Source: Escherichia phage mEp044. From it: a DNA stretch of 54,557 bases. Of the stretch, positions 5,303-54,510 are shown piece after piece. The notes beneath the pieces are model-generated. The model was not told the DNA's origin. It saw only the letters and a program-made list of their open reading frames with translations, and did not search any database. Position numbers and translations under genes: made by a program. Each line of letters opens with the position of its first letter. The first letter of the stretch is position 1. The stretch lies in the sequence record PP180004; one strand, 5' to 3'.

Positions 5303-5320
5303 TATGTCATTACCTCCTGT

Positions 5321-6463
5321 TTACAAAATGGAAAATTCAGGGTAATAAACAAAGCGCCCGATCTCCCCATGATCCGGGCTGTAAATAATCACCGCTGCCA
5401 GACGCCGCGACCTCCAACCTCCATTAGTCGAATATGCATCTTTGCCCGCTAACGTGCCGTGATACTCAACAACGCCTAACGATGATTCAATCAGCCTTTG
5501 ATGATGCCAGTGCCCGCAATGAGCGTAAACCGCAGACGACTTGCCAAAGTCTTCCCGCCAGTCAGCTACGCAAGCAGACAATAAATTTTCCGGCTTTTTG
5601 ATAGTGTGCCCGTGGTGGTAAGCAAGGAATGTTTTCCCGTACTGCGTGTGGTGGACGATAGTAGGTGACACATCAACCGTCACGCGCGGTTCATCTTCGT
5701 AAAAAGCCGCCAGCGCCGCACGTAGCCAAATCATACCAGACTGGTCATGATTCCCTGATAACACCTGGATTTCCACATCCTTATGATTTAGCAACATCTT
5801 TCCTACCGCACGCCGGACAGACCGGATCGCCACATAAACAAGTTTTGCGTAGCGCGAATCGCAATCAAGAACGTGATTACTTGATGGCGTCACTGGTAAC
5901 AATCCGTCAGTGTGAAGCAGGTCGCCACCGAGAAGCAAGACCGCTTTTTCACTCATAGGAGCAGCGCCAACAGCATAATCAAAGAAGTTATTTAGCACGC
6001 GTTCAGCGATCCCAGTGTCGTAGCTCTCGCCGCATTCAGCTTTATGAGCAAGCGCGCCGATATGCAGATCAAATACCGGATAAAGGGCAAGGCTTTTTTG
6101 AAAATCAATTTCAGGCACTGGCACGGCATCCGCGCGTGGTATTTCCTCCGTGAATGCGTCGCGGGCAGCTTCCATTAGCCTTTCCATTTCATCGCGGTCA
6201 CGGGCTGTTTTAATCCAGCGCATGACCGTATTCCCAGCCTTATCGACAAGAACAGATTCACCAGTAACGCCAAAACCCGGCGCGCGGCGCGTTGATAATA
6301 AACCGCGTTTCGCCAGCTTTGCGCCCAGGCGCTCGACGTTGCGTTTTGACATGCCAAATTTTTCGGCGATCTGTTTATACGTTAAACCGTTGTTATATTC
6401 AGCGATCAATTGCTCATCGCTGATTTTTCTTTGCGACATAATGTTAATTCCTCCAGTTAACAA
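5321..6463 (-). CDS. N-terminal HTH fused to calcineurin-like metallophosphoesterase
   Basis: 380 aa; HTH LTYKQIAEKFGMSKRNVERL; phosphoesterase motifs DLHIG, GGDLLH, GNHDQ, HHGH, GHWHH. Confidence 0.7.
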   Translation of the reverse strand: MLTGGINIMSQRKISDEQLIAEYNNGLTYKQIAEKFGMSKRNVERLGAKLAKRGLLSTRRAPGFGVTGESVLVDKAGNTVMRWIKTARDRDEMERLMEAARDAFTEEIPRADAVPVPEIDFQKSLALYPVFDLHIGALAHKAECGESYDTGIAERVLNNFFDYAVGAAPMSEKAVLLLGGDLLHTDGLLPVTPSSNHVLDCDSRYAKLVYVAIRSVRRAVGKMLLNHKDVEIQVLSGNHDQSGMIWLRAALAAFYEDEPRVTVDVSPTIVHHTQYGKTFLAYHHGHTIKKPENLLSACVADWREDFGKSSAVYAHCGHWHHQRLIESSLGVVEYHGTLAGKDAYSTNGGWRSRRLAAVIIYSPDHGEIGRFVYYPEFSIL

Positions 6464-7827: not shown

Positions 7828-8194
7828 TGTAATTTCTCCGTAAAACGCTCTACAACGCAAAAATCCCACCGCGTAACACGTTTGCACATGTTGCAGTGTC
7901 TTATTGCGTCATAGGAGCAATCAGGTGGCTAATTTTTGATTTACAGACTGGTAGGTATGTTATGGATTGACTAGAAGGAATAAACCGCCGAACAAGGCGA
8001 CGTTAACAGCGATTGCCGCAGAGATGGCAAAAGCTAGGGCGAAAACGTGTTTACCGTCCATTTAAAAATCCCCTCTAAAACGCTATCTAACGAGCTAATA
8101 GCAAAAAGGTATGCAAGTGTAGCACCCAATGCAATTTAGCTCGCTGGTGAGCTTGCTGGGTTGGTTATTTTTGGTTTTTGTGTATCGTGGTTGG

Positions 8195-9187
8195 TCAAAG
8201 AGCGCCAGCGCGTGTATCACGTAGCGTTTTTGGTTTAAGCAGGAAATCAAGTGTCGCAGTGAAGCCATCGCCGAAGTAAAAATCTGAAGCCTTGTTTTTG
8301 AATGCTTCGAAGTAGGCGATAAATCCGTTAATGCTTTTGTCTTTCAGGTAGTCAGTGAACGCATAGATCTTGCGTTCAAGATCCCGATCAAGTTCGGCAG
8401 GTGGCAACAGGCCATCAAACGTGATGTTAAATTCTTCCACCACGTCGGCAGCGTTTGCAGTAGCTGATAGCTTTCGCCATTGTTCAGCATCAGCCAGATA
8501 CCCATCAAACTTAGTTGCCCGGCAAATGTTAACAGGCTTAGGTGTTCCACCACGGCTACGCCATTGCGTTAAAGCCCACTCAATCACTAATGTGATCTCA
8601 TCCTCAGTATACGCTTTACGTGTTTTTGTTTCTGTCAGTAGTTCGATGAACGGTTTTGCATCACGACATTTGCATCCTGCCTTGTCGTTGTAAAAGGCCA
8701 GGCAACGCAATGCAGCCAGATTAACCTCCCGATCTTCTTCGCTGATAGACTCGTCTTTTTCCAATACACGAAGTGTATTGTTTTTAATGTTCTCTTTACT
8801 GGTTATATATGACTGGTTAGGGTGACTCTGTGTCACTACCCCCGGTGACTCTGTGTCACTACCCTGGTGACTCTGTGTCACTACCCCCGGTGTCACAGTG
8901 ACACTACCATGTAATGACGGGAGGACTATTACATAGAAATTACTAGTTTGCTCTTTTCCTCCGATTAAGTATCTTGGTTGTTTAATCAACAACCCTTTTT
9001 CACAAAGTGAGTCTACAGCCCTCATAGCTGTTCTTTTACTGATCTCACACTCCTTTGCTATGTGATGGTAAGAAGGGTAACACTCGCCGTTATCATTAGC
9101 GTTGTCAGCTAACTTTAACAGCACAAGTTTGTGCATTGGGTCGCCGACCTCAGTATGGAAGACCTCTACCATTAGCCGCATACTCAT
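8195..9187 (-). CDS. replication initiator with N-terminal HTH domain (lambda O-like role); contains the ori iterons
   Basis: 330 aa; N-terminal HTH; internal iteron array as in lambda O. Confidence 0.7.
   Translation of the reverse strand: MSMRLMVEVFHTEVGDPMHKLVLLKLADNANDNGECYPSYHHIAKECEISKRTAMRAVDSLCEKGLLIKQPRYLIGGKEQTSNFYVIVLPSLHGSVTVTPGVVTQSHQGSDTESPGVVTQSHPNQSYITSKENIKNNTLRVLEKDESISEEDREVNLAALRCLAFYNDKAGCKCRDAKPFIELLTETKTRKAYTEDEITLVIEWALTQWRSRGGTPKPVNICRATKFDGYLADAEQWRKLSATANAADVVEEFNITFDGLLPPAELDRDLERKIYAFTDYLKDKSINGFIAYFEAFKNKASDFYFGDGFTATLDFLLKPKTLRDTRAGAL
8821..8908. repeat. origin iterons: three direct copies of about 20 bp (ggtgactctgtgtcactacc) followed by an inverted variant, then an AT-rich stretch (8909-8950)
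   Basis: read directly; lies inside the initiator gene (encodes the VTQSH peptide repeats). Confidence 0.7.
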
Positions 9188-9207: not shown

Positions 9208-9453
9208 CTAAAACATTAACTTATAAACACAGAAGAAGCCCGGCAGCTGGCTAATCAGGCCGCTTCTTTTCAGTTGATGCAGCGCAGATATAGTGTCACG
9301 TAACGAAATTTCGCACATTTCCGCGATCTCTTCTGGCGTTACTTCGCTTTTGCCGTTGCATCCGGCCTTTGTTGCCAGTGCAATTAAGATGAGTTTTTGC
9401 GCCGGATCATTGTTATTCAGGCGAATATCAAAAGCCTTGCGCACGTAATACAT
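9208..9453 (-). CDS. small HTH DNA-binding protein, first gene of the minus-strand early operon (Cro/CII position)
   Basis: ORF 9208-9495 trimmed to ATG 9453 preceded by AGGAGA; HTH similar to the initiator N-terminus. Confidence 0.55.
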   Translation of the reverse strand: MYYVRKAFDIRLNNNDPAQKLILIALATKAGCNGKSEVTPEEIAEMCEISLRDTISALHQLKRSGLISQLPGFFCVYKLMF

Positions 9454-9561
9454 ATTCTTTTCTCCTATGGTTAGAGTGAACGCGCGGGCGGGCATCCCAT
9501 TAGCATTAGATAGCAGTGACTGACCGCTGAACAGATCCCGCCGTTGCGTGATATTTGTTTT

Positions 9562-9595
9562 TCGCTTCGCAGCGACACCGGATTTTTAAAGAGCT
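9562..9595 (-). promoter_or_regulatory. candidate nutR-like site: boxA-like GCTCTTTAAAAAT plus hairpin TCGCT-GCGA-AGCGA on the minus strand
   Basis: boxA-like match and adjacent short stem-loop in the leader of the minus-strand operon. Confidence 0.4.
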
Positions 9596-9633
9596 TTAAG
9601 GTATGTGCCTTTTGTGCTTTCCCTTATCTTTTT

Positions 9634-9735
9634 CCTTGCATCATTGCAACTATGGCCTTACCTTGTCTGTAAGTTTACAGAATGGCGTTAACAGATCAAG
9701 GATTGAAAATTACATTTTGTGACTTGCATCAAAAT
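9634..9735. promoter_or_regulatory. immunity-region operator/promoter zone: repeated TTGCATCA half-sites (9636-9649 as TTGCA-N4-TGCAA; 9726-9733), palindrome CTGTAA-GT-TTACAG (9666-9679)
   Basis: repeats read in the 305-bp divergent region between the Cro-position gene and cI. Confidence 0.4.
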
Positions 9736-9758
9736 TTTTTCGGTTATAGGGTAGCGAT

Positions 9759-10406
9759 ATGAAAACAAAATGGTATGACTTAGCAAAACAACTCATGCGG
9801 GCGCAGGGCATGAGCCAGGATTCATTGGCTGATCTTATGGGGATAACCAAAGGCGGCCTTTCTCACTGGTTGAACGGTCGCCGTGAGCCGAATCTTGAAG
9901 ATATTGCGCGGATCATGCGGGCGCTTGGGCGTCGGCAGTTCACTGTCACACATGATGGAATGGTCATTGATGATTCTGTTTCTAACACGTTGCCGGGAGC
10001 GCCACCGCGTGATTTAGGCAGTTACCCGGTTGTTGACTGGAAGGATGTAGTAAACAATATGGAAGATGCAAGGCGATCAACATTACCACACGTTACGACT
10101 AGCGTTATTTGTTCAGATGATAGTTATTGGCTGGTAGCTAAAGGCGAATCAATGAACGCGCCGCAAGGGTTAAGCATCCCGGCGGGTACTATGATACTTG
10201 TTGACCCGCACGCGCCAGCTATTGACGGCAAGCTCGTTATAGCCCAACTGGAGGAAGGGCAGACGCCTACGTTTAAACAGTTGATTATTGATGGAGGCCG
10301 AAAACTTTTGCGTTCACTTAATCCGTTGTATCCGCCGATCCCTATGAATCCAGAATCAAAAATCATTGGCGTGGTTGTTGATGCGAAGATCGTAAACCTG
10401 CCATAA
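9759..10406 (+). CDS. cI: CI-type repressor (HTH plus LexA-like S24 peptidase domain)
   Basis: 215 aa; N-terminal HTH; C-terminal AKGESM ... K motifs of S24 autopeptidases. Confidence 0.9.
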   Translation: MKTKWYDLAKQLMRAQGMSQDSLADLMGITKGGLSHWLNGRREPNLEDIARIMRALGRRQFTVTHDGMVIDDSVSNTLPGAPPRDLGSYPVVDWKDVVNNMEDARRSTLPHVTTSVICSDDSYWLVAKGESMNAPQGLSIPAGTMILVDPHAPAIDGKLVIAQLEEGQTPTFKQLIIDGGRKLLRSLNPLYPPIPMNPESKIIGVVVDAKIVNLP

Positions 10407-10411
10407 ACACT

Positions 10412-10436
10412 AGCCGCCTGATGGCGGCTTTTCTTT
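10412..10436 (+). terminator. rho-independent terminator after cI
   Basis: 7-bp GC stem agccgcc/ggcggct followed by a T-run. Confidence 0.6.
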
Positions 10437-10529
10437 GCCTGAAAAACACCAAAACGTAAACAGAAAACGTGTTTTATCATTTAAATATCAATGACATATA
10501 AAATATTTTAAAAAAGTATACAAAATGGA

Positions 10530-10558
10530 TTGACTAGGTGTTTTACGGGGCGTATATT
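10530..10558 (+). promoter_or_regulatory. sigma70-like early promoter: TTGACT, 17 bp, TATATT, immediately preceded by a TATACAAAATGG motif
   Basis: near-consensus -35/-10 with 17-bp spacing. Confidence 0.55.
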
Positions 10559-10599
10559 GCGAATCAAAGGATGAAGCAAGGCAGGGAAAGAAGGTTACT

Positions 10600-10637
10600 T
10601 GCTCTTTAACAATCTGGTCAGCCGCTGGAAGTGCGGC
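10600..10637 (+). promoter_or_regulatory. candidate nutL-like site: boxA TGCTCTTTAACAA (10600-10612) plus boxB-like hairpin GCCGC-TGGAAGT-GCGGC (10621-10637)
   Basis: boxA matches the rrn/lambdoid boxA consensus; hairpin follows 8 nt later, upstream of the N-like gene. Confidence 0.55.
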
Positions 10638-10692
10638 AATTAACGAAGATGATTTTTATTAAGTATCATCAAGGATATAAGGAGATCAGATC

Positions 10693-10983
10693 ATGACAGT
10701 TACAATCATGTATGGCAAATGTGACAGTAAACTGAATGCCAGGGAACGCAGAAGAATAAAAAGAGAAAACGAAAGAAAATCATCACCTGCAATCAATAAA
10801 ACGGACAATGTGGATAAAGCCATTCGCTTTGCAAACGAGGAGAGATGCAAACCCAATGGCATTAAAGAACGTCGCAAAGGAGCAGTAAAATGGTATACGG
10901 AAAATGAAAGCGGCAACTACTACCACGCAACGCAACCACGCCAGTTAGGGGAAAAACCCCTTGATAAAGTCCGCTATCATTAA
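10693..10983 (+). CDS. N-like antitermination protein candidate (arginine-rich motif NARERRRIKRENERK)
   Basis: 96 aa, first gene after the early promoter and nut-like site; ARM resembles lambda/P22 N. Confidence 0.5.
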   Translation: MTVTIMYGKCDSKLNARERRRIKRENERKSSPAINKTDNVDKAIRFANEERCKPNGIKERRKGAVKWYTENESGNYYHATQPRQLGEKPLDKVRYH

Positions 10984-12726: not shown

Positions 12727-12836
12727 ACCTTGCAAAAATTGCCGCATTGCTTGCGGCTTTGTCTATCGCTGTGCTGTATCTCAGCGTATCGCTTTATATC
12801 ACGGTAGCGATCATTAAACTCATTGCTAACATGTGA
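12723..12836 (+). CDS. 37-aa hydrophobic single-helix membrane peptide
   Basis: manual translation MNLAKIAALLAALSIAVLYLSVSLYITVAIIKLIANM. Confidence 0.35.
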   Translation: MNLAKIAALLAALSIAVLYLSVSLYITVAIIKLIANM

Positions 12837-14981: not shown

Positions 14982-15174
14982 ACAGTATAAAGAATGGAAG
15001 ATTCCAGAGGAAGCAAAAAAGGCAGCGCCCGGAAGGTTTTCTGGCGTTTATTTTTATATGGATGGTAAATGGTATTTCGGCAGCAGGCCGGATCACTATT
15101 ATCAAGAATTATGCAAATCTCACACATGGGACATTAAGGAGCGCGTGCAAGGCGGTGTAATAGACGAGGTTTAA
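14971..15174 (+). CDS. hypothetical protein
   Basis: 67-aa ORF. Confidence 0.35.
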   Translation: MKFKQYKEWKIPEEAKKAAPGRFSGVYFYMDGKWYFGSRPDHYYQELCKSHTWDIKERVQGGVIDEV

Positions 15175-16698: not shown

Positions 16699-17182
16699 CA
16701 GGTTATTGGCCTGCGTTTATGTCGCCGTTTTCGTGATCATCAACCTTATTGTTAACCATTGCGGCCCGTGGGTAATTCCGATCACCACGGTAGCCGCTGT
16801 GTGTGTCAATATGATGATCCGTGACTTCCTGTTGTATGACGGCGGCCTGAAATGGTCTGCTACAACATGCGCCGCCGCTGGCGCAATTACTGTGCTGATA
16901 AATTACGACGCCGGAATGGTGGCGATAGCGTCATTCGTTGCGGTTGTTTCCGGTGCGCTTATTTCTGGCGGCGTTTACCGGGTTTTACCTGGTGATTTCG
17001 ATTCTAAGCGCTGGCCTGCAAATATAGCGTCCGCCATTGGCGATGCGTTAATTTTCCCGACGCTATCGTTTATGGCATTTATGCCTGAAATATCAGCTAT
17101 GCAATTTATCTCAAAAATGGCAGCGGTAACGGTGATCACTATCATCATGCGCCGATATTTCACGTTTGAGGGCAGAAAATGA
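16679..17182 (+). CDS. multi-pass integral membrane protein; weak resemblance to VUT/YhhQ-type transporters
   Basis: ORF 16649-17182 trimmed to ATG 16679 preceded by AGAGGT; about 5 hydrophobic helices. Confidence 0.45.
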   Translation: MKKVAIDRLLACVYVAVFVIINLIVNHCGPWVIPITTVAAVCVNMMIRDFLLYDGGLKWSATTCAAAGAITVLINYDAGMVAIASFVAVVSGALISGGVYRVLPGDFDSKRWPANIASAIGDALIFPTLSFMAFMPEISAMQFISKMAAVTVITIIMRRYFTFEGRK

Positions 17183-17937
17183 GCAAGGCTAAACACTGGT
17201 TAAATAACTGGCTAAGAAGTTGGGTTGTATGGTCGCTGTACGACGGCAGCGGGTACGCCGTTAAAGATTGGGCGGAAGCAGGATATAAATGCTATTGCTT
17301 CAACTATGACGGCGCAAATCACGGCGATTATGAAGGCGTTAAAATAATTCATCCAAATATTGAATATGTCAACGTCTGGATTGATAGCCATTTCCTGGTA
17401 ATGTTCTCCCCTGAATTGTCTGTATATCCAGATCCTGACATTATCTTGGGTTTTCCGCCATGCGACGATCTCGCTGTGTCTGGCGCTCGCTGGTTCGCTG
17501 ACAAGCGAAAAGAAGATCCTGACTTCCAGGTGAAGGCGGCGAATAGCGCCAAACTGGTAGAAAAACTGGCGAATATGCACAACGTGCCGTGGATGGTGGA
17601 AAATCCTGTTGGCGCACTGTCAACTCTATGGCGTAAACCTGATTTTATATTCAACCCGTGCGCTTACGGTGGCTACCTGCCGGAAGATGACAAACATCCT
17701 GCTTTCCCGGATGTTTATCCGCCGCGCGACGCGTACACGAAAAAAACTTGCATATGGTGCGGCAACGGATTCAAACAGCCGCTTTTTAGACCTGTAGATC
17801 TTAACTCTGGTGATAACCCTGGATGGGCGAAAACAGGAGGCAGGACGAAACGAACAAAGATGATTCGCTCACTAACGCCGCGTGGCTTTGCCCGTGCTGT
17901 ATTCCTGGCTAACCATAACAGCGCTTTACCGGACTGA
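17179..17937 (+). CDS. short C5-cytosine methyltransferase-like protein
   Basis: 252 aa; motif I-like LYDGSGY..AGY, motif IV-like GFPPCDD..SG, motif VI-like ENPVG; no obvious target-recognition domain. Confidence 0.55.
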   Translation: MSKAKHWLNNWLRSWVVWSLYDGSGYAVKDWAEAGYKCYCFNYDGANHGDYEGVKIIHPNIEYVNVWIDSHFLVMFSPELSVYPDPDIILGFPPCDDLAVSGARWFADKRKEDPDFQVKAANSAKLVEKLANMHNVPWMVENPVGALSTLWRKPDFIFNPCAYGGYLPEDDKHPAFPDVYPPRDAYTKKTCIWCGNGFKQPLFRPVDLNSGDNPGWAKTGGRTKRTKMIRSLTPRGFARAVFLANHNSALPD

Positions 17938-18096
17938 AATTTACAAAATGGCGTCATTGCGTGATGCTGATCACATAATGGCGCTTTTCACCTTGTTCTG
18001 ACGTATCCATTTTGTATACTTCAAACAAGCAAAATGCTCTTTAAAAATCCGGCAGCGCTGAAATGCGTAGAAATCACCTGAAAAGGAGAGAGCATT

Positions 18097-18287: not shown

Positions 18288-18893
18288 ATGCAGAACCCTA
18301 AAAAACCCATACGACGCCGTTGCAAGTGCTGCGGCGTTTTTTTTGAGCCTAAATATCACAATCAAACGTGGTGCAGTGATGAATGTCTGGAAGAACTGAA
18401 GTTTGACCAGCTATGCCGCGACCGTGAAAAGGCTATGAAGGCTATGGAGCGTAAGAAACGACGCGACAGCCAGCGGGAAGAGCGCAACCGGAAGCGGAAG
18501 CAGTTGCACCCGCGAAGCTACTGGATACACCAGGCGCAAACCGTATTTAACGCATACATACGCGAACGAGACGCAGGACAACCGTGTATATCTTGCGGTA
18601 CTTACTATTACGAGCAATGCGGAGCAGACGCGGGCCATTATAGATCTGTGGCGGCGGCTGGGCATCTTCGATTCAACGAAGATAACGTGCATTTACAATG
18701 CAGACATTGCAACCAGATGTTAGACGGCAATATTGAGGCTTATCGACCTGCACTGATTCGAAAAATTGGCCTGGCAAGGGTGGAGGCGCTTGAGAACAAT
18801 AACGAAGTTCACAAATGGACTATCGAAGAATGCAAGGAGATCGCAAAAGTTTATCAGGCTAAGTTAAACGCCTTAAGGAGAAAGGCAGCATGA
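18288..18893 (+). CDS. ninG: NinG/Rap-family protein
   Basis: ORF 18159-18893 with likely start at 18288; Cys/His-rich HNH-like motifs. Confidence 0.7.
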   Translation: MQNPKKPIRRRCKCCGVFFEPKYHNQTWCSDECLEELKFDQLCRDREKAMKAMERKKRRDSQREERNRKRKQLHPRSYWIHQAQTVFNAYIRERDAGQPCISCGTYYYEQCGADAGHYRSVAAAGHLRFNEDNVHLQCRHCNQMLDGNIEAYRPALIRKIGLARVEALENNNEVHKWTIEECKEIAKVYQAKLNALRRKAA

Positions 18894-19529: not shown

Positions 19530-19708
19530 AAAACGAAATTAAAGATCTGCAAATAGATATTCAGCGCGATGAGCATGATTTAGAAACTGTACGACAAATA
19601 CAGGCTTTCCACATGCGAGAACTGCTTGCGCTGAAAGAGCTTGAGAGGAAGCTAGTCCAATCAATATCTGATCGTAAACGTCTGGTTGCTCGTTACGGGG
19701 GCAAATAA
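19526..19708 (+). CDS. hypothetical coiled-coil protein
   Basis: 60-aa ORF. Confidence 0.35.
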   Translation: MKNEIKDLQIDIQRDEHDLETVRQIQAFHMRELLALKELERKLVQSISDRKRLVARYGGK

Positions 19709-20430
19709 TGAATCTGGAATCAATTCTTAAATTCCACTTCCCAAAATCACCTCGTTTGTCAGATGAAAGCCGGGGCACGTCCCCTGATGCGCTTAATACT
19801 ACTGATGCACTAACTGCCGCAGGTATGGCGCAATCGCGCGTAGAGCTTGGTTACAGCGCTTTTTTAGGGAAGATGGAACTATCACAAGCAGAAAAACATA
19901 AGGCCGTAGTTTTGCTTATAGAGCGTTTAAGGGCTATGGCAAAAGACTATGAATACGTTATGGAACTGGACGAGGCCAAACGCAATGATCTCATTATTCT
20001 TATTGCCGTTTTCGCGTTTCGGGATTATTGCCAGAGTGCCGCGACGGGAAAAACTTGCCCGGAGTGCGGCGGATATAAATTTACGTTTGACGAATACGGA
20101 GAAAAACACCTTTGCAAAAAATGCAAGGGGCATGGGACAGTTCGCAATCATTGTAAACAATGCAAGGGTCGGGGCGAAGTACCGGATAAAGCAGCCAGTG
20201 AAGCGGCGGAAATGCCAGTGTTCAAAACGTGCCAGCACTGCGGCGGGCGCGGGTATCCGCGTTTCCCTGTAGATCTCGTTCGGCAGGCTGTCAATCAGCT
20301 TGTCTTTCCGGTAAGCCGATCAACGTGGTGGAAGAAATACCGCGCTTTCTATGAAGACGCCATTGCTGAATTGTTCAAAGAAGAGGCGCGTGCTGATAAC
20401 GAAATTAAACGAGTTACGAGGGGTGAATAA
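19708..20430 (+). CDS. Q: lambda-type late antiterminator Q
   Basis: 240 aa; N-terminus (ESILKFHFPKSPRLSDESRGTS...AAGMAQS...ELSQAEKHKAV) and Cys-rich FAFRDYCQSAATGKTCPECGG region resemble lambda Q. Confidence 0.8.
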   Translation: MNLESILKFHFPKSPRLSDESRGTSPDALNTTDALTAAGMAQSRVELGYSAFLGKMELSQAEKHKAVVLLIERLRAMAKDYEYVMELDEAKRNDLIILIAVFAFRDYCQSAATGKTCPECGGYKFTFDEYGEKHLCKKCKGHGTVRNHCKQCKGRGEVPDKAASEAAEMPVFKTCQHCGGRGYPRFPVDLVRQAVNQLVFPVSRSTWWKKYRAFYEDAIAELFKEEARADNEIKRVTRGE

Positions 20431-51864: not shown

Positions 51865-54429
51865 ATGATTTACACAACTGGAACAATTGCCATCAACGGC
51901 AACACTGTTAAAGGCACGGGAACAGACTTTTCCGCGCCGCTTTCTCTCATTCGTGTAGGGTGCACGCTCATTGCTATCAGCAACCCCATCCAGATCTTTA
52001 CCGTTACTGAAATCAAGAGCGGCACTGAACTATCAGTGACGCCAGCGGCTAACCCTGCAATTGCTGCCGGGACAAAATTCAGTATTCTACTTTCTGACTC
52101 GATCTCAGTTGATGGGCTTGCCCAGGATGTAGCAGAAACGCTTCGTTTTTATCAGGAAAAAGAAGATGAAATAACAAGCGCAATAGATGGCAGCAATATT
52201 GGCTTGGGGCCAGAGCCGCGAGATTGCACCGATATATCAGGCGATCCGTCTTCTTACGTTGGCTTTTTGCGCATAAAGGAAACGGCTAAGGGTTTTCCTT
52301 CTGTAGCGGCTGGTGAATCATTTTTGAGTGGATTCATCTGTCAACGAGATGTCACGCCTTCATATACAGGCGTCTTTGTCGGTTGGGCTACGCGATCACT
52401 TTATACTTATACATGGGTAGCCACATCAGGTCCGCAATGGACACGCAACGCAAGAAAAGATGAAGTTGACAGGCTTGTCCAAAGAACAGGAGAAACGCGC
52501 GTATGCTCTCAAAACGCAAATAAATTCCTTACTGTCTATGATTCTGGATCGTGGGGTTATTACGATTCAGAGGCCAGCAAATGGCTACCGCTTCCAATTC
52601 TTGCTGGCGGCACTGGCGCAACATCGCTTGATGATGCAAAAAAAAATCTTCAGATCCCTGAAGGCGGTCTATCAAAAACGATAACCATAAGCGCCCCATC
52701 AGGTATGGAAGATGGAAAATACTATCCTATAATCGTGTTTACTGGTGAAACAAACGGAGGAGCTTTTCCGTGTCCGGTTGAAATTGTAACTGTTGGCGGA
52801 CCTTCCACCTCAGAAATGAACAGCAATACATTTTCTGGTTATGTCAGATGCGGTGGATGGTCAGACATCAGAAATATAGCGTATGGGTACTATACTGCAT
52901 ACGAACCAAAAGAGGTTGCTATACTTTGCATTAAGGGATCAACCAAAGACTACGCTCAACATATAGCTTTTTATGTAAGCAATAAAGCGTTTCCAATTAA
53001 AATCCAAGTAGGATATAAAGCGCAAGTATTCGTGCCCACTAGTGATTATTCTTTGGGAACAAACGGGGTAAAATTCAAATTTGGCGTGTCAACATCAGAA
53101 GAGGGTAACACAGAAAACAGCGTTACTAATATACTTGATTTTACTGGTGGCCAATCAGGTTTTTACAGTAACGCATTATTCAGGCAAGGATACTCAACAA
53201 ATTTTGCGCTTACTAATAAATTAAACTCAACAGATCCGTTTATTGTTACGCTGCCGTCATTCACAGTTTTAGGGTCTATTAATTGCACTAAAGGACTTAT
53301 TGCATATGGCGAGGACGTAACCAACAGGACATTTGTATCACGGCGCACCAATGCAGCAGCCAATGAGACGCTTGATCAGTCAGAGTTCAGGGCAGCAGAA
53401 AAAGCCGCGCAAATTGTTGTTCGTGACATGACTGCATCAAACCATATGTTTTTTAATTTTAATGGTGATGGTACTTTTAATGCACCAGGAGGTCTTGTAT
53501 CACAGACTGGCACTGACTGGAACGGTCAGCAGTCAGATAACATAAACAGGTTTAAGCCGATTGCTGGTCAAATAAATACACCGGAAAATAATGTTGTTTA
53601 TGGCGGTTTTCATGTCGGTTTTAGCGGCAACTACGCAACCCAGTTCGCTGGGCGCAATTCAAAATTCTACGCCAGAAGTTTTGAGGCAGGAGTAGACAAA
53701 GGATGGTGTCAGCTTGCAACGCTTAACAATGAGCTTGTGCAAAGGTGGACGGGATACCAACAATTTAAATCAACGGATTTTTTTGCTGATACTTTCACAA
53801 GAAAAATAACTCTAGCCGTCTCAAATTCATCGGCAAGAAATGCCGAGCTTTATTTGTGGGGCGCTGAAAACCGTCCCACCGTACTTGAGTTCAAGATAAA
53901 GGATCCAGACACAGGTAGTGGGCTTTCATGGGCTTTTTACGCACAGCAAAACCAGGATGATTCATGCCAATTTAATGTTAACGGTGCTGTAAACTGCACA
54001 ACAGTTAACCAGTCATCTGACCGCGACTTGAAAGACAACATTCAGGTTATAGGTGACGCAACTGAAGCCATCCGTAAAATGAACGGGTACACTTATACCC
54101 TCAAGGAAAACGGCCTGCCTTACGCTGGCGTTATCGCTCAGGAGGTCATGGAGGCACTGCCGGAAGCTGTGGGGTCGTTTACTCATTACGGTAAAGCATT
54201 GCAAGGACCGACCATTGACGGCAACGAGCTACGCGAAGAAACGCGTTATCTCAATGTTGACTACGCCGCAGTAACTGGTTTACTTGTCCAGGTTGCACGA
54301 GAAACGGATAACCGCGTCACCGAACTGGAAGAAGAAAACGCAAGCCTACGCGCTAACATTGCCGCAATGGATGAGCGTATCGCAAAACTTGAAGCGCTTG
54401 TCAGTAAGTTGACAGAAGGCGAAAAATAA
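51865..54429 (+). CDS. tail fibre/tailspike with C-terminal intramolecular-chaperone (peptidase S74) domain
   Basis: 854 aa; C-terminal SSDRDLKDNIQ ... LNVDYAAVTGLLVQ and coiled-coil end typical of S74 autoproteolytic chaperone domains. Confidence 0.75.
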   Translation: MIYTTGTIAINGNTVKGTGTDFSAPLSLIRVGCTLIAISNPIQIFTVTEIKSGTELSVTPAANPAIAAGTKFSILLSDSISVDGLAQDVAETLRFYQEKEDEITSAIDGSNIGLGPEPRDCTDISGDPSSYVGFLRIKETAKGFPSVAAGESFLSGFICQRDVTPSYTGVFVGWATRSLYTYTWVATSGPQWTRNARKDEVDRLVQRTGETRVCSQNANKFLTVYDSGSWGYYDSEASKWLPLPILAGGTGATSLDDAKKNLQIPEGGLSKTITISAPSGMEDGKYYPIIVFTGETNGGAFPCPVEIVTVGGPSTSEMNSNTFSGYVRCGGWSDIRNIAYGYYTAYEPKEVAILCIKGSTKDYAQHIAFYVSNKAFPIKIQVGYKAQVFVPTSDYSLGTNGVKFKFGVSTSEEGNTENSVTNILDFTGGQSGFYSNALFRQGYSTNFALTNKLNSTDPFIVTLPSFTVLGSINCTKGLIAYGEDVTNRTFVSRRTNAAANETLDQSEFRAAEKAAQIVVRDMTASNHMFFNFNGDGTFNAPGGLVSQTGTDWNGQQSDNINRFKPIAGQINTPENNVVYGGFHVGFSGNYATQFAGRNSKFYARSFEAGVDKGWCQLATLNNELVQRWTGYQQFKSTDFFADTFTRKITLAVSNSSARNAELYLWGAENRPTVLEFKIKDPDTGSGLSWAFYAQQNQDDSCQFNVNGAVNCTTVNQSSDRDLKDNIQVIGDATEAIRKMNGYTYTLKENGLPYAGVIAQEVMEALPEAVGSFTHYGKALQGPTIDGNELREETRYLNVDYAAVTGLLVQVARETDNRVTELEEENASLRANIAAMDERIAKLEALVSKLTEGEK

Positions 54430-54460: not shown

Positions 54461-54487
54461 AACGAGGCTAACGCCTCGTTTCTTTTT
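54461..54487 (+). terminator. rho-independent terminator after the tail fibre gene, abutting the right 24-bp repeat
   Basis: 8-bp stem aacgaggc/gcctcgtt followed by a T-run. Confidence 0.7.
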
Positions 54488-54510
54488 GTGTACCAAATAG
54501 TGACCAAAAT
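54487..54510. repeat. right copy of 24-bp direct repeat tgtgtaccaaatagtgaccaaaat; candidate att core (attR)
   Basis: identical to 161-184 with different flanks. Confidence 0.55.

Follow-up and report, generated by a model that had tools for sequence, protein, structure and literature searches.

The window, by which we mean the whole 54,557-nucleotide stretch of Escherichia phage mEp044 DNA (sequence record PP180004) that was analysed, contains a gene for a CI-like repressor that lies between a leftward and a rightward candidate early promoter (Table 1). The counterpart of this gene is labelled cI or putative repressor in the annotation of mEp013 and mEp021. The plus-strand operon encodes an N-like protein, a Kil-like protein, Erf and SSB, and three nut sites, each composed of a boxA and a boxB hairpin, are present: nutL on the minus strand, nutR1 upstream of the gene for the N-like protein, and nutR2 between a methyltransferase gene and NinF/NinG, with the nin/Q region downstream. 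mEp021 has the same gene order (repressor, Gp17, Kil-like, Erf, SSB and, farther on, methyltransferase, nutR2, NinF/NinG, RusA and Q), and its whole DNA is about 94% identical to the window. It differs in carrying an insert of about 215 nt (annotated gp16) between the promoter and nutR1, which is absent from both the window and mEp013. Between positions 9100 and 11200, the window is 93-95% identical to mEp013, mEp021, mEp554, mEp010 and mEp515. With a protein identical to Gp17, an S24-type repressor, three nut sites at the published positions and this level of DNA identity, mEp044 belongs to the mEpimmI (mEp021-like) group of Nus-dependent "non-lambdoid" coliphages.

Table 1. Positions of the features discussed in the text, numbered from the first nucleotide of the window
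Feature	Position	Strand	Basis or remarks
nutL boxB (TCGCTGCGAAGCGA; UCGCU-GCGA-AGCGA)	9562..9575	-	5-bp stem, GCGA loop, -6.5 kcal/mol; invariant in relatives
nutL boxA (GCTCTTTAAAAAT)	9582..9594	-	kept in all relatives except one T/C difference at the last-but-one base; whole nutL 9594-9562
Leftward early promoter candidate (TTGATC, 16 nt, TAAACT)	9672..9699	-	8/12 consensus, under scan threshold; putative
CI-like repressor gene (HTH + S24 peptidase)	9759..10406	+	Pfam Peptidase_S24 E=1e-18, HTH_3 E=2.7e-13
Intrinsic terminator after repressor gene (mEp021 TERM_1)	10412..10429	+	-14.4 kcal/mol, z -3.0; mapped from mEp021 annotation
Rightward early promoter candidate (TTGACT, 17 nt, TATATT)	10530..10558	+	10/12 consensus; hexamers conserved, spacer variable in relatives
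nutR1 boxA (TGCTCTTTAACAA)	10600..10612	+	conserved in relatives; whole nutR1 10600-10637
nutR1 boxB (GCCGCTGGAAGTGCGGC; GCCGC-UGGAAGU-GCGGC)	10621..10637	+	5-bp stem, 7-nt loop, -10.1 kcal/mol
N-like antiterminator gene (Gp17 orthologue), 96 aa	10693..10983	+	ORF; identity to mEp021_17; PHROG 271
Arginine-rich motif codons, residues 15-29 (NARERRRIKRENERK)	10735..10779	+	translation
Intrinsic terminator downstream of nutR1 (mEp021 TERM_2)	12741..12757	+	52/52 nt identical to mEp021 TERM_2 region
Predicted terminator (mEp021 TERM_3 equivalent)	15025..15056	+	-11.3 kcal/mol; no better than shuffles
Methyltransferase gene	17179-17937		PHROG 757
15-bp hairpin followed by CUUUUC (mEp021 TERM_4)	17950..17985	+	between methyltransferase stop and nutR2; terminator in MH706966
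Promoter-like module (TTGTTC, 16 nt, TATACT), hypothetical	17993..18020	+	partial leftward-promoter copy; 15 nt upstream of nutR2 boxA
nutR2 boxA (TGCTCTTTAAAAA)	18035..18047	+	identical to mEp021 sequence; whole nutR2 18035-18068
nutR2 boxB (GCGC-UGAAAU-GCGU)	18055..18068	+	-5.5 kcal/mol
Q-type late antiterminator gene	19708..20430	+	downstream of nutR2; Pfam Antiterm (PF03589) E=1.5e-29
Weak terminator-like hairpin, candidate only	7984..8001	-	downstream of the leftward operon's replication gene; -6.7 kcal/mol, no better than shuffles

The N-like gene encodes a small basic protein of 96 residues with an N-terminal arginine-rich motif, as in the lambdoid N family (lambda N, P22 gp24, phi21 N); the first-pass annotation had already pointed out the motif. 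The protein is 100% identical to mEp021 Gp17 (mEp021_17), which is presented in PMC11893012, citing Valencia-Toxqui 2023 (Arch Virol 168:92), as the experimentally demonstrated N-lambda-like early antiterminator of mEp021. Among 15 homologues, N15, A16, R17, R20 and R24 of the motif are invariant and R19 and R21 nearly so; R17, R19, R20 and R24 have been described as fully conserved across 48 phages (PMC11893012). A PHROG search with the protein returned a single match, over its full length, to PHROG 271, "anti-termination protein N-like" (E=1.1e-10), and lambda N (E=4e-23) and P22 gp24 (E=7e-40) likewise match that family alone. A comparison of the protein family with P22 gp24 by hhalign gave E=4.8e-4 over 47 columns that cover the N-terminus, the arginine-rich motif and a D-x-V-x-K-A-I segment, while the comparison with lambda N was confined to a weak match of 11 residues (the C-terminal ERK..WY segment, E=0.023). 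Alignment with N proteins, which had been proposed as a check, thus succeeds with profiles and largely fails with single sequences: BLASTP aligned 20 residues with P22 gp24 (E=0.008) and produced no alignment with lambda N. Likewise, the score against Pfam N_peptide is 16.6 bits, where the cut-off is 27.9, and every member of the family tested falls below the gathering score (best E=4.8e-4); searches of solved structures with the protein and the family profile returned nothing meaningful. Homology to the N proteins holds at the profile level only, pairwise similarity being weak or absent.

The boxA elements stand out clearly from the rest of the window. The 13-mer GCTCTTTAAMAAT occurs three times where 0.02 copies are expected (100 shuffles), and each copy is intergenic, lies on the strand that codes for its neighbouring genes and has a hairpin 7-8 nt downstream. 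When one mismatch is allowed, the boxA 9-mer is mildly enriched (24 observed, 15.3 expected). All three cores are the rrn consensus GCUCUUUA, as opposed to the lambda sequence CGCUCUUA. The claim that the boxA of nutR1 is identical to the rrn consensus is borne out by the rrnG boxA-spacer sequence UGCUCUUUAACAAU (PMC2724277, Table 1), with which the match extends over 14 nt and so takes in the first bases of the spacer. Nut sites had been predicted on both early leaders, and both are real; the third, nutR2, had been missed. The three sites occupy exactly the positions given in PMC11893012 for the targets of Gp17 in mEp021, where nutL and nutR1 lie upstream of the repressor gene and of gp17, respectively, and nutR2 follows a methyltransferase gene. 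Over the 52 nt compared, nutL and its mEp021 counterpart are identical from the boxA on, nutR2 is identical across boxA, boxB and flanks, and the boxA of nutR1 differs by one base, with T in the window and A in mEp021 (GCTCTTT versus GCTCATT). A distant BLASTN search with the nutL and nutR2 regions matched six mEp-type phages and no other phage groups, and an Rfam scan of the window and the mEp021 locus returned no family at the gathering threshold. As a separate observation, a consensus boxA fits the dependence on host Nus factors that PMC11893012, with reference to Kameyama 1999 and Valencia-Toxqui 2023, reports for the mEp group.

Both hairpins proposed at first, that of nutR1 and the GCGA-loop hairpin on the minus strand, fold as described (Table 1), and their conservation proved more informative than their stability. 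Relatives have GCUAC/GUAGC, UCGC/GCGA, GCAC/GUGC or GCUC/GAGC in place of the nutR1 boxB stem, and the outer pair of the nutR2 boxB, G.U in the window, is C-G in four relatives (L005, L006, L008 and L011) and A-U in another (L012). Three of six boxB pairs have changes on both sides. The covariation score is 0.406, compared with 0.10 in shuffles (0.406 being reached in 0 of 500) and no more than 0.076 with the partner columns slid. The folding energies of -5.5 to -10.1 kcal/mol fall within or just under the range of the reference hairpins (-9.4 for lambda, -8.6 and -6.9 for P22). In contexts of 46-51 nt the hairpins do not exceed shuffles in stability (z -0.2 to -0.4); as isolated 20-mers or thereabouts, the nutR1 and nutL hairpins reach z of about -2 and the nutR2 hairpin, of marginal energy, -1.1. 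The deciding evidence for the nut sites is conservation and covariation, not folding energy. A covariance model built from these nut sites alone recovers both annotated P22 nut sites, which lie outside the model, at 18.7 and 18.3 bits (E of about 0.004), while the lambda nut sites score about 6 bits. nutL, whose sequence is itself among those used to build the model, scores 55.1 bits, and the rest of the window scores at most 10.8. Within the methyltransferase gene, positions 17495-17511 form another boxB-like hairpin (E=0.38); no boxA accompanies it, and it was taken as a chance occurrence.

Three other explanations were weighed against this evidence. The first is that the boxA elements are rrn-type antiterminators that work through NusB, NusE, NusA and NusG with no phage protein, the 96-residue protein having some other role. 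The rrn-consensus cores, the 14-nt match of nutR1 to rrnG and the finding that a consensus boxA strengthens antitermination (PMC2724277) are what such elements would lead one to expect. However, a hairpin with a covarying stem and a conserved loop stands at a fixed distance after each boxA, and the rrn type needs no such hairpin, just as it needs no boxB-binding phage protein (PMC2724277); the protein belongs to the N family, and Gp17 is the factor held responsible in the account of mEp021 (PMC11893012). We consider this explanation very unlikely. The Nun protein of phage HK022 is likewise small, has an arginine-rich motif, is encoded at the N position and binds boxB. Given this resemblance, and that sequence alone cannot separate the two activities, the 96-residue protein might instead be a Nun-like exclusion factor that binds the boxB RNA of competing phages and causes termination. 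HK022 relies on put RNAs and is not known to have nut sites, whereas the window has three, and these are cognate sites carried by the early transcripts of the phage itself, ahead of terminators and of the essential replication and Q genes. The identical protein is moreover reported as an antiterminator in PMC11893012, so that a Nun-like activity seems even less probable than the rrn-type explanation. Finally, chance matches in AT-rich intergenic DNA, combined with ordinary terminator or RNase III stems, would account for the unexceptional stability of the hairpins in context and the mild enrichment of the 9-mer, but this explanation deserves practically no weight, since it is already refuted by the covariation, the recovery of the P22 sites and the count of the 13-mer, and no U-tract follows the hairpins.

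The protein and nut sites are closer to those of P22 than to those of lambda, as judged by profile alignment (E=4.8e-4 versus an 11-residue segment) and covariance-model scores (18-19 versus about 6 bits). P22 gp24 is in the same PHROG family as the 96-residue protein and resembles it at the N-terminus (MTVTIMYGK versus MTVITYGK) and in the arginine-rich motif (NARERRR versus NAKTRRHERRR in P22), with no alignment outside the N-terminal half. The two phages share the boxA GCTCTTTA, nutR1 has the CAATCTG spacer of P22 nutR, and P22 nutL precedes gene 24 as nutR1 precedes gp17 in the window. They differ in that the boxB loops of P22 are GACAA pentaloops, where those of the window are GAAA, GCGA or GGAA(G), and in that P22 has two nut sites with nutR after cro, whereas in the window neither promoter is separated from its nut site by a cro-like gene, and a third nut site lies 7.4 kb downstream. 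Lambda follows the same logic, in which a small protein has its arginine-rich motif at the N-terminus, both early transcripts carry a boxA and a boxB hairpin, and the system depends on Nus factors (PMC11893012). Lambda N shares the PHROG family yet shows no significant pairwise similarity, the lambda boxB loops are GAAAA or GAAGA pentaloops, and lambda places its replication and nin/Q genes in one operon, where the window has replication leftward and recombination and nin/Q rightward. The first-pass annotation had called the position of the rightward nut site, ahead of the first gene, unlike lambda. This contrast is misleading: a nut site before the antiterminator gene is exactly the layout of lambda nutL-N and of P22 nutL-24, and the plus-strand operon corresponds to the PL operons of lambda and P22.

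Consensus matches and conservation would place the nut sites downstream of the early promoters. For the leftward candidate, the hexamers are invariant or nearly so in eight relatives and the 5' half of the spacer is variable. In the rightward direction, the terminator downstream of nutR1 is a likely target of antitermination. The 65-nt stretch that holds the hairpin preceding nutR2 has a folding energy of -20.8 kcal/mol (z -3.4), and seven relatives keep the stem unchanged, with a varying loop. According to the legend of Figure 7 in PMC11893012, t1, t2 and t5 are experimentally demonstrated terminators and t3 and t4 are predicted; we assume that t1-t5 are TERM_1-5 of the mEp021 GenBank record. 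In the leftward operon, a search for intrinsic terminators yielded none that is convincing, Rho-dependent ones being beyond the prediction used. A TGTGA-N6-TCACA palindrome upstream of nutR2 was considered as a CRP site and rejected, because it forms the tip of the 15-bp hairpin, which the mEp021 annotation lists as a terminator. In the predicted fold of the nutR1 leader (z -2.5), the boxA-boxB spacer also pairs over a long range with bases immediately ahead of the start codon; lambda-like translational control through this pairing was dropped, as relatives L007, L008 and L009 do not keep its partners.

Taken together, the identity to Gp17, the membership in PHROG 271 and the covarying boxB stems support the N-type antitermination first proposed for this region, and we put at roughly 0.93 the probability that the locus provides a temperate, mEp021-like (mEpimmI) coliphage with its N-type system for early processive antitermination. 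When repression is lifted, the rightward promoter would transcribe a leader that contains nutR1 and then the gene for the protein identical to Gp17. The N-terminal arginine-rich motif of this protein would bind the boxB hairpins in nascent RNA and the rrn-consensus boxA elements would recruit host NusB/NusE, and together with NusA and NusG the complex would make RNA polymerase insensitive to terminators. The rightward operon would then be read through the terminators at about 12.7, 15.0 and 17.95 kb, and polymerase would pass nutR2 and enter the nin-like genes and the gene for the Q-type late regulator; from nutL, the leftward replication operon would be read. Within this scheme we infer the exact promoters, the terminators that are overridden and the Nus contacts. 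Gp17-dependent antitermination at three nut sites has been shown by others on the identical protein, according to the account of mEp021 in PMC11893012.

nutR2 itself may have an additional property. The promoter-like module ahead of it aligns locally with the leftward promoter region with a score of 38, compared with 13.6 +/- 2.2 (maximum 26) in 2000 shuffles, and the relatives all keep its -10 hexamer and differ in the 5' part of its spacer. Ahead of nutR2, the strong conserved hairpin is followed by this conserved partial promoter copy, which would initiate about 9 nt before the boxA. It is possible, and we put it forward tentatively as somewhat doubtful, that nutR2 serves a third early transcription unit as its promoter-proximal nut site, rather than a distant reloading site for polymerases that started 7.4 kb upstream. 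The phage would then have three terminator-insulated promoter-nut cassettes, with expression of the nin genes and Q dependent on Gp17 at the third. The same tentative proposal takes the boxB loops as true GNRA tetraloops: they can be read as GCGA, GAAA and GGAA with a closing pair of U-A, U.U or U.G, where the lambda and P22 loops have 5 nt. True GNRA tetraloops closed by a U.N pair may imply an RNA recognition somewhat unlike that of the lambda and P22 pentaloop complexes. This reading of boxB and the partial promoter copy before nutR2 may go beyond the published description.

The antitermination system is already published and is not new biology, since work on mEp021 has characterised the identical protein and the three nut sites, and a survey of them has covered 48 related phages and prophages. 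For mEp044, the present analysis shows what the protein is identical to and which family it belongs to, how many nut sites there are and where they lie, and that these sites are conserved and covary, and it finds that an N/nut antitermination system was recognised correctly from raw sequence alone. Its additions are modest: formal covariation of the boxB stems across more divergent relatives (with Gp17 down to 65% identity), evidence of a system closer to P22 than to lambda, and the testable suggestion that nutR2 has a promoter of its own, which, if true, would account for the presence of three nut sites, not two, in these phages.

The 96-aa protein that the first-pass annotation had proposed as part of an N-type antitermination system is 100% identical to Gp17, the N-like early antiterminator of coliphage mEp021, and this region shares 93-95% identity with coliphages mEp013, mEp021, mEp554, mEp010 and mEp515. 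The functional evidence for Gp17 is the description of Valencia-Toxqui et al. (2023) in PMC11893012. According to that description, the N-lambda-like Gp17 is responsible for early antitermination in mEp021, its residues R17, R19, R20 and R24 are conserved in 48 of 48 group members, and phages of the mEp021 group need host Nus factors. The same account has Gp17 act on three nut sites, nutL ahead of the repressor gene, nutR1 ahead of gp17 and nutR2 past a cytosine methyltransferase gene, and these published positions are matched exactly by three sites in the window. The antitermination system of the window is already known, from mEp021.

When the 96-aa protein was searched against PHROG families, the sole match was PHROG 271, "anti-termination protein N-like" (E=1.1e-10, residues 2-95), which is likewise the only family matched by lambda N (E=4e-23) and P22 gp24 (E=7e-40). 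A profile of 15 homologues, with identity down to 65%, aligned with P22 gp24 over 47 columns (E=4.8e-4) spanning the N-terminus, the arginine-rich motif and the D-x-V-x-K-A-I segment; with lambda N, only the C-terminal ERK..WY segment aligned (E=0.023). Thirteen of the 15 homologues match Pfam N_peptide, all below threshold. Pairwise BLASTP gave a weak match to P22 gp24 (20 residues, E=0.008) and none to lambda N. The homology to N proteins is present on formal alignment, at the profile level only.

The coordinates claimed for the ORF and for the nutR1 and nutL elements all proved exact. Both sites stand; the count of two does not, since a third copy of the 13-mer GCTCTTTAAMAAT, unnoticed in the first pass, lies at 18036-18048 (+) and is followed by the nutR2 boxB. 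Three copies of this 13-mer in the window compare with 0.02 expected from shuffles. Through its first spacer base, the nutR1 boxA matches the boxA-spacer of E. coli rrnG, UGCUCUUUAACAAU, exactly (PMC2724277). In the 52 nt compared with mEp021, nutL has no differences from its boxA on; nutR2 matches mEp021 throughout its boxA, boxB and flanks, and nutR1 differs at one boxA base. Between the rightward promoter and nutR1, mEp021 (locus L001, 4480-4700) has a GC-rich, apparently structured insert of ~215 nt, annotated gp16, for which an Rfam scan gave no match. An insert of this type also lies upstream of gp17 in several prophages (L005, L006, L010, L011 and L012), whereas mEp013, like the window, is without it.

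Features of the antitermination system and its surroundings, in window positions
Feature	Position	Strand	Remarks
First leftward gene	9453-9208	-	81 aa from ATG, good ribosome-binding site
nutL boxB hairpin	9575-9562	-	TCGCTGCGAAGCGA, 7 nt after boxA
nutL boxA	9594-9582	-	GCTCTTTAAAAAT
Candidate leftward promoter	9672-9699	-	
CI-like repressor	9759-10406	+	HTH and S24 peptidase domains
Strong terminator at repressor gene end	10412-10429	+	terminator prediction, fold
Good sigma-70 (rightward) promoter candidate	10530-10558	+	TTGACT, 17 nt, TATATT; then nutR1, 96-aa gene
nutR1 boxA	10600-10612	+	TGCTCTTTAACAA, in leader of 96-aa gene
nutR1 boxB hairpin	10621-10637	+	GCCGCTGGAAGTGCGGC, 8 nt after boxA
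96-aa protein ORF	10693-10983	+	NARERRRIKRENERK at residues 15-29
Kil-like peptide, Erf, SSB	after 96-aa gene	+	
TERM_2 equivalent	12741-12757	+	identical to mEp021 over 52 nt
Dam-like methylase	further along	+	Pfam Dam in relatives
TERM_3 equivalent	~15025-15056	+	terminator prediction, mEp021 annotation
Second methyltransferase	17179-17937	+	PHROG 757
TERM_4 equivalent	17950-17985	+	15-bp hairpin, annotated in mEp021
Partial copy of leftward promoter	17993-18020	+	TTGTTC, 16 nt, TATACT; after TERM_4 hairpin
nutR2 boxB hairpin	18055-18068	+	GCGCTGAAATGCGT, 3' of third 13-mer copy
NinF/NinG, RusA	after nutR2	+	
Q-type antiterminator	19708-20430	+	last of listed plus-strand genes
Recurrent element copies	9672-9688, 10516-10532, 17940-17956	-	
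Recurrent element copies	18004-18020, 5319-5331	+	

Folded as isolated RNAs of ~20 nt, the boxB hairpins have energies of -10.1 (nutR1), -6.5 (nutL) and -5.5 kcal/mol (nutR2); calculated likewise, both lambda hairpins come to -9.4 and the two of P22 to -8.6 and -6.9. Energy alone is not distinctive, and it is conservation that marks these hairpins out. At comparison loci whose Gp17 homologues show 65-88% identity, the stem at the nutR1 position reads GCCGC/GCGGC, GCUAC/GUAGC, UCGC/GCGA, GCAC/GUGC or GCUC/GAGC while its loop stays constant as U-GAAA-U/A, and the outer pair of the nutR2 boxB is G.U, C-G or A-U. Across 15 distinct nut sequences, changes on both sides occur in three of the six boxB pairs, and the covariation score is 0.406, compared with 0.10 in shuffles (0 of 500 as high) and no more than 0.076 after sliding of the partner columns. 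A covariance model built from the nut sites of the window and its relatives, with the P22 sites left out, recovers both annotated P22 nut sites at 18.7 and 18.3 bits (E ~0.004) and gives the lambda sites only ~6 bits; scanning the window with it revealed nothing else above 10.8 bits besides the nut sites. The boxB loops of all variants can be read as GNRA tetraloops (GCGA, GAAA, GGAA) with a U-A, U.U or U.G closing pair, the GGAA reading requiring that U6.G11 be paired and U12 bulged, whereas lambda and P22 boxB are pentaloops.

Given its gene order of nut, N, kil and recombination genes, the plus-strand operon begins like the PL operons of lambda and P22. Lambda nutL precedes N and P22 nutL precedes gene 24, as nutR1 precedes the 96-aa gene, and so the suggestion that a rightward nut ahead of the first gene is unlike lambda falls away. 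Running leftward from the repressor, the minus strand has nutL and encodes a small HTH protein and an O-like replication protein, to which relatives add a DnaB helicase and NinB. The product of the first leftward gene is similar not to Cro but to the winged-helix N-terminal portion of replication initiators (PHROG 4617, E=2e-10); neither early promoter is separated from its nut site by a cro-like gene (9453-9759). The ~100 nt of leftward leader past the nutL boxB (9454-9560, -) are almost invariant in 8 relatives despite a differing first operon gene, and their predicted fold is no better than shuffles. This leader might hold a Rho-dependent terminator, a rut-type signal or an opposite-strand promoter for establishing repressor synthesis. 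At the window ends lies a 24-bp direct repeat, TGTGTACCAAATAGTGACCAAAAT (161-184 and 54487-54510), the left copy abutting the integrase start codon (186) and preceded by repeated ATCGTGTCACATCGT motifs (60-135). These look like an att core and arm-type sites, so that the window seems to span a complete phage or prophage genome.

Relatives show hardly any variation in the 100 nt ahead of nutR2, even those with a different upstream gene. This stretch includes the TERM_4 hairpin (z -3.4), whose stem is invariant and whose loop is variable. Comparison of 17936-18034 (+) with the leftward promoter region (9735-9655, -) gave a local score of 38, where 2000 shuffles gave 13.6 +/- 2.2 and never exceeded 26; the segment is the best non-self match to that region in the window. 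Both have CCTTG(A/T)TCTG in the -35 region and CCATT(C/T)TGTA(A/T)ACT over the -10 region, with a spacer of 16 nt in each; among relatives both keep their hexamers with little or no change, the variation falling in the 5' half of the spacer. Since the segment resembles the leftward promoter and its hexamers are conserved, nutR2 may have its own promoter. The common element, which is also present in reverse orientation ahead of the rightward promoter, may instead be a protein-binding site. As a 13-17-nt element, CCATT(T/C)TGTA(A/T)AC(T), it is repeated next to each of the three control regions with a nut site. It overlaps the candidate -10 hexamer of the leftward promoter and that of the nutR2 promoter, adjoins the rightward -35 just upstream, and may be an operator or other protein-binding half-site; with up to 3 mismatches, the 13-mer has 50 matches across the window vs 20 expected. 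A 25-nt stretch at 54397-54421 (-), CGCCTTCTGTCAACTTACTGACAAG, matches the leftward promoter core at 23 of 26 aligned positions and sits at the end of a plus-strand reading frame (TAA stop, 54427-54429).

A minus-strand search, limited to intrinsic terminators, gave a single weak candidate at 8001-7984. On the plus strand, ~280 nt downstream of nutR2, a well-formed hairpin with a U8 run (18313-18338; -15.8 kcal/mol, z -2.6) falls within the NinG codons for the N-terminal RRRCKCCGVFFE motif; a candidate only, it may act as a terminator within the gene or be a mere by-product of coding sequence. The identity with Gp17, the match to PHROG 271, the three nut sites and the covariation of boxB stems support the N-type reading, and standard N-type antitermination is the best explanation. 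The arginine-rich motif of Gp17 would bind boxB, the consensus boxA would recruit NusB/NusE, and RNA polymerase would, with NusA and NusG, be made terminator-resistant, its likely plus-strand targets being the equivalents of TERM_2, TERM_3 and TERM_4, the terminators annotated in mEp021.
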